A stretch of 5,162 nucleotides of DNA from a virus. Lineage: Duplodnaviria > Heunggongvirae > Uroviricota > Caudoviricetes. The stretch lies in the IMG/VR virus record IMGVR_UViG_2667527849_000003. One strand, written 5' to 3'. This document shows positions 1 through 5,162 of the stretch, one piece after another. The position numbers and the translations under genes were made by a program. The notes under the pieces are model-generated. The model did no database searches. It was not told where the DNA came from and worked only from the letters and a program-made list of their open reading frames with translations. The first letter of the stretch is position 1, and each line of letters begins with the position of its first letter.

Positions 1-20
1 CGGGCGGTTTTGTCGTTTAT

Positions 21-31
21 GGAGCGTGAGG
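21..31 (+). promoter_or_regulatory. Putative ribosome-binding site for J (GGAG / GAGGA purine-rich stretch just upstream of ATG at 33)
   Basis: Sequence ggagcgtgagga lies immediately 5' of the ATG at 33..35 that opens the 728-aa ORF; the spacing is typical for a Shine-Dalgarno element. Direct reading only. Confidence 0.4.
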
Positions 32-32
32 A

Positions 33-2219
33 ATGGGTAAAGGCAGCAGTAAGGGGCATACCCCGCGCGAAGCGAAGGACAACCTGAAATCCACGCAGTT
101 GCTGAGTGTGATTGATGCCATCAGCGAAGGGCCGGTTGACGGTCCGGTGGATGGATTAAAAAGCGTGCTGCTGAACGGTACGCCGGTCCTGGACAGCGAG
201 GGGAAGACAAACTTTTCCGGTGTTACGGTGGTGTTCCGTGCAGGTGAGCAGGAGCAGACACCGCCGGAGGGTTTTGAATCCTCCGGCTCCGAGACGGTGC
301 TGGGTACGGAAGTGAAATATGACACGCCGATCACCCGGACCATCACGTCGGCAAACATTGACCGTCTGCGCTTTACCTTCGGTGTGCAGGCACTGGTGGA
401 AACCACCTCAAAGGGTGACCGGAATCCGTCGGAAGTCCGCCTGCTGGTTCAGATACAGCGTAACGGTGGCTGGGTGACGGAAAAAGACATCACCATTAAG
501 GGCAAAACCACTTCGCAGTATCTGGCCTCGGTGGTGGTGGGTAACCTGCCGCCGCGCCCGTTTAATATCCGGATGCGCAGAATGACGCCGGACAGCACCA
601 CAGACCAGCTGCAGAACAAAACGCTCTGGTCGTCATACACCGAAATCATCGATGTGAAACAGTGCTACCCGAACACGGCGCTGGTCGGCGTGCAGGTGGA
701 TTCAGAGCAGTTCGGTAACCAGCAGGTGAGTCGCAATTATCATCTTCGCGGGCGCATTCTGCAGGTGCCGTCGAACTATAACCCGCAGACGCGGCAATAC
801 AGCGGTATCTGGGACGGAACGTTTAAGCCAGCATACAGCAACAACATGGCCTGGTGTCTGTGGGACATGCTCACTCATCCGCGCTACGGCATGGGGAAAC
901 GTCTTGGTGCGGCAGATGTGGACAAATGGGCGCTGTATGTCATCGGCCAGTACTGCGACCAGTCAGTGACGGACGGATTTGGCGGCACGGAGCCGCGCAT
1001 CACCTGTAACTCTTACCTGACCACACAGCGTAAGGCGTGGGATGTTCTCAGTGATTTCTGCTCGGCGATGCGCTGTATGCCGGTATGGAACGGACAGATG
1101 CTGACGTTCGTGCAGGACCGACCGTCGGATAAGGTGTGGACCTATAACCGCAGTAATGTGGTGATGCCGGATGATGGTGCGCCGTTCCGCTACAGCTTCA
1201 GCGCCCTGAAGGACCGCCATAATGCCGTTGAGGTGAACTGGATTGACCCAGATAACGGCTGGGAGACGGCGACAGAGCTTGTGGAGGATACGCAGGCCAT
1301 TGCCCGTTACGGTCGTAATGTCACGAAGATGGATGCCTTTGGCTGTACCAGCCGGGGGCAGGCACACCGCGCCGGGCTGTGGCTGATTAAAACGGAACTG
1401 CTGGAAACGCAGACCGTGGACTTCAGCGTGGGCGCAGAAGGGCTTCGCCATGTACCGGGTGATGTCATTGAAATCTGCGATGATGATTATGCCGGTATCA
1501 GCACCGGTGGTCGCGTACTGGCGGTGAACAGCCAGACCCGGACGCTGACGCTCGACCGTGAAATCACGCTGCCATCCTCCGGCACCACGCTGATAAGCCT
1601 GGTTGACGGGCAGGGGAATCCGGTCAGCGTGGAGGTCCAGTCCGTCACCGACGGCGTGAAGGTAAAAGTGAGCCGTGTTCCTGACGGTGTTGCTGAATAC
1701 AGCGTGTGGGGGCTGAAGCTGCCGACGCTGCACCAGCGATTGTTCCGCTGCGTGAGTATCCGTGAGAACGACGACGGCACGTATGCCATCACCGCCGTGC
1801 AGCATGTGCCGGAAAAAGAGGCCATCGTGGATAACGGGGCACACTTTGACGGTGACCGGCGCGGCACGGTGAATGGTGTCACGCCGCCAGCGGTGCAGCA
1901 TCTGACCGCCGAAGTCACCGCAGACAGCGGGGAATATCAGGTGCTGGCGCGATGGGACACGCCGAAGGTGGTGAAGGGTGTGAGCTTCCTGCTTCGCCTG
2001 ACCGTGGCAGCGGACGACGGCAGTGAGCGGCTGGTCAGCACAGCCAGGACGACGGAAACCACATACCGCTTCAGGCAGCTGGCGCTGGGGAATTACAGTC
2101 TGACAGTCCGGGCGGTAAATGCCCGGGGGCAGCAGGGCGATCCGGCGTCGGTATCGTTCCGGATTGCGGAAATCCGGTCAGCGTGGAGGTTCAGTCCGTC
2201 ACCGACGGACTTAAGGTGA
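33..2219 (+). CDS. J: Lambda-type tail tip / host specificity protein J (gpJ), N-terminal fragment. J-homologous coding runs to about 2170, then the frame reads 49 nt out of frame through the duplication junction to a TGA at 2217..2219
   Basis: ATG at 33 with upstream purine-rich RBS. The translation begins [34 protein letters not shown], which I recognise as the N-terminus of phage lambda gpJ, and the ORF shows J-like sequence across ~712 codons. The tail [19 protein letters not shown] is the frame-shifted read of the second repeat copy. Strand + and frame 0 (33 mod 3). Confidence 0.85.
1617..2170 (+). repeat. Copy 1 of a 554-bp direct tandem duplication inside J
   Basis: aatccggtcagcgtggagg at 1617 recurs at 2171, and ggattgcgg at 2161..2169 recurs at 2715..2723. 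The constant offset of 554 was checked at the start, middle (cgtgagtatc at 1751 and 2305) and end. Encodes [18 protein letters not shown]...[10 protein letters not shown] in J frame. Confidence 0.9.
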
Positions 2220-2724
2220 AAGTGAACCGGGTTCCTGACGGCGTTGCAGAATACAGCGTGTGGGGGCTGAAGCTGCCGACGCTGCGCCAGCGTCTGTTCC
2301 GCTGCGTGAGTATCCGTGAGAACGACGACGGCACGTATGCCATCACCGCCGTGCAGCATGTGCCGGAAAAAGAAGCCATCGTGGATAACGGGGCGCGCTT
2401 TGACGGCGACCAGAGCGGCACGGTGAATGGTGTCACGCCGCCAGCGGTGCAGCACCTGACCGCCGAAGTCACCGCAGACAGTGGGGAATATCAGGTGCTG
2501 GCGCGATGGGACACGCCGAAGGTGGTGAAGGGTGTGAGCTTCCTGCTTCGCCTGACCGTGGCAGCGGACGACGGCAGTGAGCGGCTGGTCAGCACAGCCA
2601 GGACGACGGAAACCACATACCGCTTCAGGCAGCTGGCGCTGGGGAATTACAGTCTGACAGTCCGGGCGGTAAATGCCCGGGGGCAGCAGGGCGATCCGGC
2701 GTCGGTATCGTTCCGGATTGCGGC
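2171..2724 (+). repeat. Copy 2 of the 554-bp direct tandem duplication inside J (in frame +2 relative to copy 1)
   Basis: Same unit as 1617..2170 displaced by 554 bp. About 20 nucleotide substitutions against copy 1, all within the first ~312 bp (last difference near 2482); the remaining ~240 bp are identical. After 2723 the sequence continues caccggcagcgcctgtc (APAAPVTIE), the expected continuation of J. Confidence 0.9.
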
Positions 2725-4066
2725 ACCGGCAGCGCCTGTCACTATTGAACTGATACCGGGGTATTTTCAGATAACGGCGGTCCCGAAACTGGCTGTATAT
2801 GACCCGACGGTGCAGTTTGAGTTCTGGTTTTCGGAAAAGCGGATTGCGGATATCAGGCAGGTTGAAACCACAGCCCGCTATCTTGGTACGGCGCTGTACT
2901 GGATAGCCGCCAGTATCAATATCAGGCCGGGCCATGATTATTATTTTTACGTTCGCAGTGTGAACACCGTTGGCAAATCGGCATTTGTGGAGGCCATCGG
3001 TCGGGCGAGCGATGATGCAGAAGGTTATCTGAATTTTTATAAAGGGTTGATCAATAAAACGCATCTCGGCAAGGAGTTGTGGACGCAGATTGATAACGGT
3101 CAGCTTGCGCCGGACCTGACTGAAATCAGGACGTCCATTACGAATGTCAGCAATGAAATCACGCAAACCGTCAATAAAAAACTGGAAAATCAGAGTGCTG
3201 CAATCCAGCAGATACAGAAAGTTCAGGTTGATACAAATAATAACCTGAACAGCATGTGGGCTGTGAAGCTGCAACAGATGAAGGACGGACGCCTTTATAT
3301 TGCGGGTATCGGTGCCGGTATTGAGAATACGCCAGCAGGAATGCAGAGTCAGGTGCTGCTGGCGGCAGACAGGATTGCGATGATTAATCCTGCGAATGGC
3401 AACACAAAGCCGATGTTTGTTGGTCAGGGCGATCAGATATTCATGAACGACGTGTTCCTGAAATGCCTGACGGCTCCGACCATTACCAGCGGCGGTAATC
3501 CTCCGGCATTTTCCCTGACACCTGGCGGACGGCTGACGGCGAAAAATGCCGATATCAGCGGTAACGTGAACGCGAACTCCGGGACGCTCAACAACGTCAC
3601 GATTAATAAGAACTGTCGGGTTCTGGGAAAATTGTCCGCGAACCAGATTGAAGGCGATCTCGTTAAAACAGTGGGCAAACCTTTCCCACGGGACTCCCGG
3701 GCACCGGAGAGGTGGCCATCAGGGACCATTACCGTCAGGGTTTATGACGATCAGCCGTTTGATCGGCAAATTGTTATTCCCGCGGTGGCGTTTCGCGGTG
3801 CTAAACATGAGCGGAAGAATAACAATATTTATTCGTCATGCCGCCTGATAGTGAAGAAAAACGGTGCTGAAATTTATAACCGAACGACCCTGGATAATAC
3901 GCTGATATATACGGGTGTTATTGATATGCCTGCCGGTCACGGTCACATGACGCTGGAGTTTTCTGTATCGGCATGGCTGGTAAATGGCTGGTATCCCACA
4001 GCAAGTATCAGCGATTTGCTGGTTGTGGTGATGAAGAAAGCCACTGCAGGCATCACGATTAGCTGA
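2183..4066 (+). CDS. J: gpJ-like host specificity protein, C-terminal fragment: second copy of the duplicated segment, an FN3-like domain, and the C-terminal (receptor-binding) region. Possibly non-functional as a stand-alone gene
   Basis: ORF in frame +2 opening at GTG 2183, the first start codon in frame; there is no convincing RBS, so the true start is uncertain. Translation [19 protein letters not shown]... repeats the J segment and continues with J-like motifs ([47 protein letters not shown]) that I recall from lambda gpJ. Stop TGA at 4064..4066 is followed by a hairpin terminator. Confidence 0.75.
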
Positions 4067-4084
4067 ATTTTATAACCCAGATAC

Positions 4085-4109
4085 GGGCACCAGAAATGGT
4101 GCCTTTTTT
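4085..4109 (+). terminator. Rho-independent terminator downstream of J (tJ-like)
   Basis: Stem ggcacc (4086..4091), loop agaaat, stem ggtgcc (4098..4103), then TTTTTT (4104..4109), 19 nt after the J stop codon. Confidence 0.6.
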
Positions 4110-4122
4110 ATTGCAGAAAAGC

Positions 4123-4128
4123 GAGAGG
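4123..4128 (+). promoter_or_regulatory. Ribosome-binding site for lom (GAGAGG)
   Basis: gagagg lies 5 nt upstream of the ATG at 4134. Confidence 0.5.
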
Positions 4129-4133
4129 TAATT

Positions 4134-4205
4134 ATGCGTAAAGTTTGTGCAGCCATTTTGTCCGCAGCCATTTGTCTGGCCGTATCCGGTGCGCCTGCAT
4201 GGGCG
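4134..4205 (+). other. Predicted Sec signal peptide of Lom (24 aa, cleavage after A-W-A)
   Basis: Basic N-terminus (MRK), hydrophobic core (VCAAILSAAICLAV), and AxA-type cleavage motif AWA followed by SEHQ. Confidence 0.6.
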
Positions 4206-4733
4206 TCTGAACATCAGTCCACGCTGAGCGCCGGGTATCTTCAGACCCATACTGATATGCCAGGCAGCGATGACCTGAAGGGCATTAACGTGAAATACCG
4301 TTATGAGTTTACGGACACGCTGGGGCTGATTACGTCATTCAGTTATGCCAACGCTGAAGATGAGCAAAAAACGCATTACAGCGATACCCGCTGGCATGAG
4401 GATTCCGTGCGTAACCGCTGGTTCAGCGTGATGGCGGGGCCGTCTGTGCGCGTGAATGAATGGTTCAGCGCGTATGCGATGGCGGGTGTGGCTTACAGCC
4501 GTGTGTCGACTTTCTCCGGGGATTATCTTCGCGTAACTGACAACAAGGGGAAAACGCACGATGTGCTGACCGGAAGTGATGGCGGTCGCCACAGCAACAC
4601 GTCTCTGGCGTGGGGAGCTGGCGTGCAGTTTAACCCGACCGAATCCGTGGCCATTGACCTTGCTTATGAAGGTTCCGGCAGTGGTGACTGGCGCACTGAC
4701 GGTTTCATCGTGGGTGTCGGTTATAAATTCTGA
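4134..4733 (+). CDS. lom: Lom-family outer membrane protein (Ail/Lom/PagC/OmpX-type 8-stranded beta-barrel), phage-borne lysogenic-conversion 'moron' gene
   Basis: 199-aa ORF with ATG start and good RBS. N-terminal Sec-type signal peptide MRKVCAAILSAAICLAVSGAPAWA. C-terminus YEGSGSGDWRTDGFIVGVGYKF ends in a terminal Phe, and the alternating hydrophobic pattern is typical of outer-membrane beta-barrels. This C-terminal block matches lambda Lom as I recall it, and the position directly downstream of J matches lambda gene order. Confidence 0.9.
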   Translation: MRKVCAAILSAAICLAVSGAPAWASEHQSTLSAGYLQTHTDMPGSDDLKGINVKYRYEFTDTLGLITSFSYANAEDEQKTHYSDTRWHEDSVRNRWFSVMAGPSVRVNEWFSAYAMAGVAYSRVSTFSGDYLRVTDNKGKTHDVLTGSDGGRHSNTSLAWGAGVQFNPTESVAIDLAYEGSGSGDWRTDGFIVGVGYKF

Positions 4734-4760
4734 TTAGCCAGGTAACACAGTGTTATGACA

Positions 4761-4786
4761 GCCCGCCGGTTCAGGCGGGCTTTTTT
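4761..4786 (+). terminator. Rho-independent terminator downstream of lom
   Basis: Perfect 7-bp GC-rich stem gcccgcc (4761..4767), loop ggttca, stem ggcgggc (4774..4780), followed by TTTTTT (4781..4786), 28 nt after the lom stop. Confidence 0.75.
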
Positions 4787-4797
4787 GTGGGGTGAAT

Positions 4798-5124
4798 ATG
4801 GCAGTAAAGATTTCAGGTGTACTGAAAGATGGGGCGGGTAAACCTGTCGTAAATTGTGCGATTGAACTGCGGGCCAGAAGAACCAGTCCGACCGTTGTGG
4901 CACACGTTGTTGCCACTTGCGTGACGGACAATAACGGTGCTTATGTGATTGAGGCTGAGCCGGGGTATTACGAGGTTGCGCTTCACTGTAACGGCTGGCA
5001 GCCAACCCGTGTCGGGGATATTGATGTGGCACCGACTGATGCACCGGGGACACTGAACGCGTTTCTGAATGCACCAAAGGATGGTGATTTACGTCCGGAG
5101 GTGATGAAGTGTCAGCGCCAGTGA
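4798..5124 (+). CDS. stf: Side tail fibre protein (Stf-like) N-terminal domain; ORF of only 109 codons, probably a truncated remnant or disrupted gene
   Basis: ATG at 4798 with GGGG 5 nt upstream, preferred over the GTG at 4792 that the ORF track uses. Translation MAVKISGVLKDGAGKPVVNC...PGTLNAFL...RPE resembles the conserved N-terminus of lambda Stf as I recall it (MAVKISGVLKDG...), and lies downstream of lom as in lambda. Stop TGA at 5122..5124. Confidence 0.6.
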   Translation: MAVKISGVLKDGAGKPVVNCAIELRARRTSPTVVAHVVATCVTDNNGAYVIEAEPGYYEVALHCNGWQPTRVGDIDVAPTDAPGTLNAFLNAPKDGDLRPEVMKCQRQ

Positions 5125-5162
5125 TATAAGACGGTAATTCGCCATTTGGATTGTCCGCTCCA

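Follow-up and report, generated by a model that had tools for sequence, protein, structure and literature searches.

The apparent tandem duplication within the host-specificity gene J of the window (the whole stretch of DNA that was analysed, 5162 nt) is almost certainly an artefact of scaffolding and gap filling in one draft assembly, in which two overlapping sub-contigs, 1-2169 and 2171-5162, are set around a single N. The window is the complete record CXFS01000212.1 (5162 bp) of the Shigella sonnei Illumina draft GCA_001254135.1. Both are equal at 5161 of the 5162 bases; the lone difference is position 2170, which is N in the record and A in the window. Since this N lies at the boundary between the copies, the copy junction is a scaffold gap, and the deposited record holds no sequenced, contiguous passage from one copy to the other. 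The gap character sits exactly between the copies and bounds the repeat on both sides to the base, as is automatic for two overlapping contigs. The initial annotation had weighed a genuine out-of-frame duplication that inactivates J; with an N at the junction in the deposited record, this reading is not supported. That reading was built on the 554-nt period and the broken frame, which rest on a gap placeholder and not on a sequenced base, so that the period, the frameshift and the 49-nt read-through into the second copy are without physical basis. Like its counterparts in other S. sonnei, J at this locus is most probably intact and 1159 codons long.

The window, taken letter by letter, does nevertheless contain a direct repeat with a constant offset of 554: 1617-2169 is found again at 2171-2723 (553 aligned positions), a match far above chance expectation. 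Identity at this offset starts at the first base after 2170, ends at the last base before 2170 and drops to background immediately beyond these limits. Position 2170 is the sole base that separates the copies, and it is unlike both 1616 (G) and 2724 (C). The 554-bp tandem repeat described initially thus stands as far as the repetition is concerned; it is not exact, the copies being 96.4% identical with 20 mismatches, and it includes the N at 2170. All mismatches are confined to 1637-1928, i.e. to the initial 312 nt, and the final 241 nt of the unit are without mismatch. The display of N as A at 2170 turned a visible scaffold gap into a seemingly sequenced junction. Ns seem to have been swapped for a base before the sequence was read, which hides scaffold gaps from a reader who has the letters only.

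Both open reading frames reported at the outset, 33-2219 (728 aa) and 2183-4066 (627 aa), exist in the window, and deletion of either copy yields, as had been predicted, a single J ORF, of 1159 codons. Aligned with annotated gpJ genes, which are 3480 nt long, the de-duplicated sequence shows no indel in J. The 20 differences between the copies cause just 6 amino-acid changes. Translated from GTG 2216, the second frame gives a product of 616 aa that is exactly CST61762.1, “host specificity protein [Shigella sonnei]”, which occurs on one contig only; through this protein record the false split of J has entered the databases. The protein of the first frame and the V-start protein of the second are not on record. 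The former absence is most simply explained by the N, which would give an X in the recorded product; the second frame from 2183 is not on record because the deposited gene begins at GTG 2216. The features of the window are compiled in the table.

Table. Features of the window around the scaffold gap in gene J (positions in window coordinates)
Feature	Position	Strand	Sequence or remarks
Sub-contig A: 32 nt upstream of J and J codons 1-712	1..2169	+	Colinear with 6422-8590 of complete S. sonnei loci; ends at the N
Sub-contig B: J from codon 529 to stop, lom, start of stf	2171..5162	+	Colinear with 8038-11028 of the same S. sonnei loci
Scaffold gap placeholder	2170..2170	.	N in CXFS01000212.1, A in the window; sole difference from locus L096
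Copy 1: end of sub-contig A overlapping B, 553 nt, one Ig_J	1617..2169	+	PF24421 at residues 611-712 of ORF1
Copy 2: start of sub-contig B overlapping A, 553 nt, same Ig_J	2171..2723	+	PF24421 at residues 78-182 of ORF2
Flanks of the copy junction			...GGATTGCGG / AATCCGGTC... (end of copy 1 / start of copy 2)
Direct join of the copies, denied by the artefact reading			...CGTTCCGGATTGCGG to AATCCGGTCAGCG...
ORF1, probably artefactual: true J codons 1-712, then 16 out-of-frame codons across the gap	33..2219	+	Pfam FNIII-A_GpJ, Phage-tail_3, Ig_J
ORF2, probably artefactual: C-terminal part of J, deposited from GTG 2216 as CST61762.1	2183..4066	+	Pfam Ig_J, Ig_J_second, Phage_Tail_Tip, Ig_GpJ_C
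lom (Ail/Lom outer-membrane protein), intact	4134..4733	+	PF06316 across full length
Short ORF, N-terminal domain of side tail fibre (stf), truncated	4792..5124	+	PF08400 phage_tail_N

The assignment of the gene to the lambda-type J family, made at the outset, is borne out by its Pfam domains and by its position in the tail module. Jointly, ORF1 and ORF2 hold all six gpJ domains in order and above the Pfam cut-offs, and the intact homologue in complete genomes has the same six-domain set. J follows the tail genes L, K and I and precedes lom and stf (annotation of NZ_CP065615; gene calls in loci L083-L092). With bacteriophage lambda gpJ it shares the full domain set and the place between tail assembly gene I and lom-stf; unlike its lambda counterpart, it lies within an S. 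sonnei prophage remnant interrupted by IS elements. The protein here is ~27 residues longer than lambda gpJ.

The reference for the unduplicated gene was a set of ten loci from complete or near-complete chromosomes of ~4.8-4.9 Mb that bear an identical Lom. In these loci, the counterpart of window positions 1-2183 is 6422-8601, and that of 2168-5162 is 8035-11028; both alignments hit the same single-copy reference and overlap there by the length of the repeat. All ten loci have a single J, 1159 aa long, which contains S. sonnei-named partial proteins exactly and is one residue off a full-length S. sonnei J. The assembly collection has 1874 blocks with a protein identical to the Lom of the window, complete S. 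sonnei-type chromosomes included.

The provenance of the record fits a join of this kind. CXFS01000001-CXFS01000374 appear in the supplementary list of Page et al. 2016 (Shigella sonnei, study ERP000568, sample ERS025896, run ERR042795), and by this listing the assembly comes from a scaffolder and gap filler that leaves N at joins. In the Sanger pipeline, Velvet assembly is followed by SSPACE scaffolding and then by 120 iterations of GapFiller; joins made from read pairs yield a gap of N, and SSPACE and GapFiller are both greedy and able to produce false joins (Page et al. 2016). About 30% of the bacterial assemblies then in GenBank were made by this pipeline (Page et al. 2016). GapFiller grows both edges of a gap by a single nucleotide per step and settles allelic differences by majority voting, and closure of a gap requires that the extensions overlap and that the size matches the estimate. 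Where scaffolders set a gap of size one between overlapping contigs, features are reported as fragmented or duplicated. The join in J resembles the minimal-gap joins of SSPACE and GapFiller (LINKS is described likewise) in having an N at the join, the same sequence on both sides and an annotated gene that is split or duplicated. It differs from a simple undetected exact overlap in that the overlap extends over 553 nt with an identity of only 96.4%, which suggests contig ends contaminated by paralogues and not simply an exact overlap that was missed.

The layout most probably arose in the following manner. Two sub-contigs were joined end to end on read-pair evidence, with one unresolved N kept at 2170. 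Where they face each other, they share a single 553-nt segment of one J gene (codons ~529-712, the first Ig-like domain). This overlap was neither recognised nor merged by the pipeline, presumably because the sub-contig ends are not identical, and the 553-nt stretch was written twice. Reads of paralogous J genes that entered the contig ends or the majority-vote extension by GapFiller may have produced the 20 differing sites. The final layout may be either a one-N join by SSPACE or an over-extension of a larger gap by GapFiller. Reads that span the junction are presumably lacking. An assembly artefact had already been offered as an alternative in the initial annotation, and this part holds; the contribution of near-identical J genes, also named there, is retained as probable, and the proposed mechanism has to be replaced, the copies resulting from an end-to-end join with one N and not from the collapsing of two genes.

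The variants between the copies are informative about the origin of the contig ends. Copy 1 departs from the reference allele of S. sonnei at 7 positions (1664-1740), copy 2 at 13. Eleven of the 13 variants private to copy 2 are linked and recur as a haplotype in other natural alleles of J (L093, L095; e.g. E. coli EC974 and 06-00048). Differences from the reference crowd toward the gap: on side A, 14 of 24 fall in the last 28% of the length, and on side B, 13 of 25 fall within the first 312 nt. An exact match to the haplotype of either copy was not found in the collections searched; in complete E. coli genomes, which lack both exact copy alleles, the best matches reach 98.5% (copy 2) and 97.4% (region of copy 1). 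A search with the 110-aa protein of copy 2 returned only short E. coli and Salmonella fragments at up to 99% identity, the best match with full coverage being 97% identical. The pattern of the 20 differences looks like natural allelic variation and not like sequencing error, and their likely source is reads of paralogous prophage J genes that shaped the contig ends. Each E. coli/Shigella genome has a median of 3 J-homologous places. Among J alleles, divergence is highest at 1600-1624 and directly after 2169, and an assembly graph that holds several J paralogues would branch at 1600-1624 and just past 2169.

Two further J proteins are of note. P0129, an S. sonnei J of 1159 aa, carries at residues 689-734 a block (717-734, past the repeat unit) that is unlike the common S. 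sonnei allele, which points to exchange among J paralogues or to mixing of paralogues in the assembly of P0129 itself. P0001 (431 aa, from a 2783-nt NCBI contig) contains a different internal J repeat (at ...FVEAVGRA|...) and outscores every single-copy J; here, too, a draft assembly of this multi-copy gene probably has a chimeric or duplicated join.

It is conceivable, at a very low probability, that the isolate truly has a tandem duplication of ~0.55 kb inside J, the junction of which was left unassembled as an N, with the frame across it undefined. Two non-identical copies do lie within one scaffold, the sub-contigs are linked by read pairs, and internal repeats of J fragments occur in other drafts, such as P0001. 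A true junction would, however, create unique k-mers, and assembly would be expected to run through it and not to break there; instead, contig ends and repeat boundaries coincide to the base. A duplication private to the isolate should also match the S. sonnei allele, whereas both copies deviate from it in clusters. Finally, the duplication occurs in no complete S. sonnei-type chromosome, and the split product is known from 1 contig, as against the 1874 blocks with an identical Lom.

Searches for the junction in other sequences argue in the same direction. None of 5426 complete E. coli genomes contains a 121-nt junction probe as one continuous stretch; the matches listed were all in two pieces, at opposite ends of a single unit. 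A 35-mer across the junction was absent from IMG/VR and from a collection with one genome per species. With an 18-mer, the matches (42 and 39, in unrelated organisms) were due to chance; they extend over no more than 19-25 nt, barring a few looser alignments of 31-33 nt at 85-87% identity. No such duplication was found in phage records either, and the junction is missing from the independent assemblies and relatives searched, which included genome, viral and metagenome collections; the split-J product is present on one contig only.

A related variant is that ERS025896 bears a tandem duplication of the region of the first J Ig-like domain with an unassembled junction that is possibly in frame (555 nt), for which we see hardly any chance. 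If it were true, an in-frame unit of 555 nt would lengthen J to 1344 aa and add one Ig-like domain to the tail tip. One form of it, a hidden in-frame duplication of 555 nt due to an extra A in the AAA run at 2170-2172, was tried and rejected: the 1344-aa protein is absent from a collection of 15 billion sequences, and the AAA run is itself partly placeholder, so that this reading is kept as a low-probability case only. The “orphan base” and microhomology at the junction, compared with the Gly codon (GGG/GGT/GGC) that stands before AAT in other alleles and considered as a sign of illegitimate recombination, became moot with 2170 being N.

It is likewise very improbable that, in an artefactual scaffold, the second haplotype stems from a mixed culture or from cross-sample contamination of the sequencing lane and not from a paralogue in the same genome. 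The haplotype of copy 2 does resemble J of unrelated E. coli (L093, L095), and among S. sonnei-named proteins none with exactly this haplotype was found. Against this stand the multiplicity of J-homologous places (a median of 3 per E. coli/Shigella genome) and the existence of S. sonnei-named J variants that differ just past the unit (P0129) as well as of a more divergent S. sonnei paralogue (P0034). Since J is multi-copy and such S. sonnei variants are known, a source within the genome is the simpler one; even if a contaminating strain had supplied the haplotype, the structure would still be an artefact.

With the join between overlapping sub-contigs as the preferred explanation, the split of J is without biological weight, and its value is practical: single-N joins in Velvet/SSPACE/GapFiller drafts can create false tandem duplications and false split genes. 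At first sight, a broken J would not be surprising in a decayed, IS-riddled prophage, and the case resembles the genuine pseudogenisation of Shigella prophages by IS insertions and frameshifts. It differs from it in that every complete S. sonnei-type chromosome examined has an intact J and that the apparent break is a gap placeholder. In the complete chromosomes, IS transposases are called between a gene for a Q-like antiterminator and the tail genes, and further IS elements follow after lom/stf; in the 10 kb fetched upstream, the gene calls include no head or packaging genes from that antiterminator gene to the tail genes. Judged by these gene calls, the element at the J locus looks like a prophage remnant, and the state of J would hence bear little on the viability of a phage.

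Some observations concern the surroundings of J. An intrinsic-terminator-like hairpin follows lom at 4758-4787 (GCCCGCCggttcaGGCGGGC, then a T run), and the T run is one T longer in the window than in the S. sonnei and FDAARGOS_943 references. Within window 4792-5162, stf is cut down to a ~110-aa N-terminal ORF that ends at 5124; gene callers report short stf fragments on the complete S. sonnei loci as well (122 aa in L086). The match to stf of E. coli FDAARGOS_943 ends at 5109, the S. sonnei chromosomes are colinear up to 5162, and an IS element is called ~0.4 kb beyond 5162 in these chromosomes. FDAARGOS_943 (NZ_CP065615.1), the “E. coli” most closely related in this prophage region, carries a frameshifted ipaH effector gene just downstream of the tail fibre genes (L001, 12409-14054), which marks the strain as Shigella/EIEC-like. 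In one complete S. sonnei-type chromosome (CP019689.1), the whole M-L-K-I-J-lom module is present twice (L087, 6454-9933 and 15871-19350; L088). The twin modules of L087/L088 are 9417 nt apart with IS elements between them, and they could reflect either a true IS-mediated duplication or an artefact of long-read assembly.
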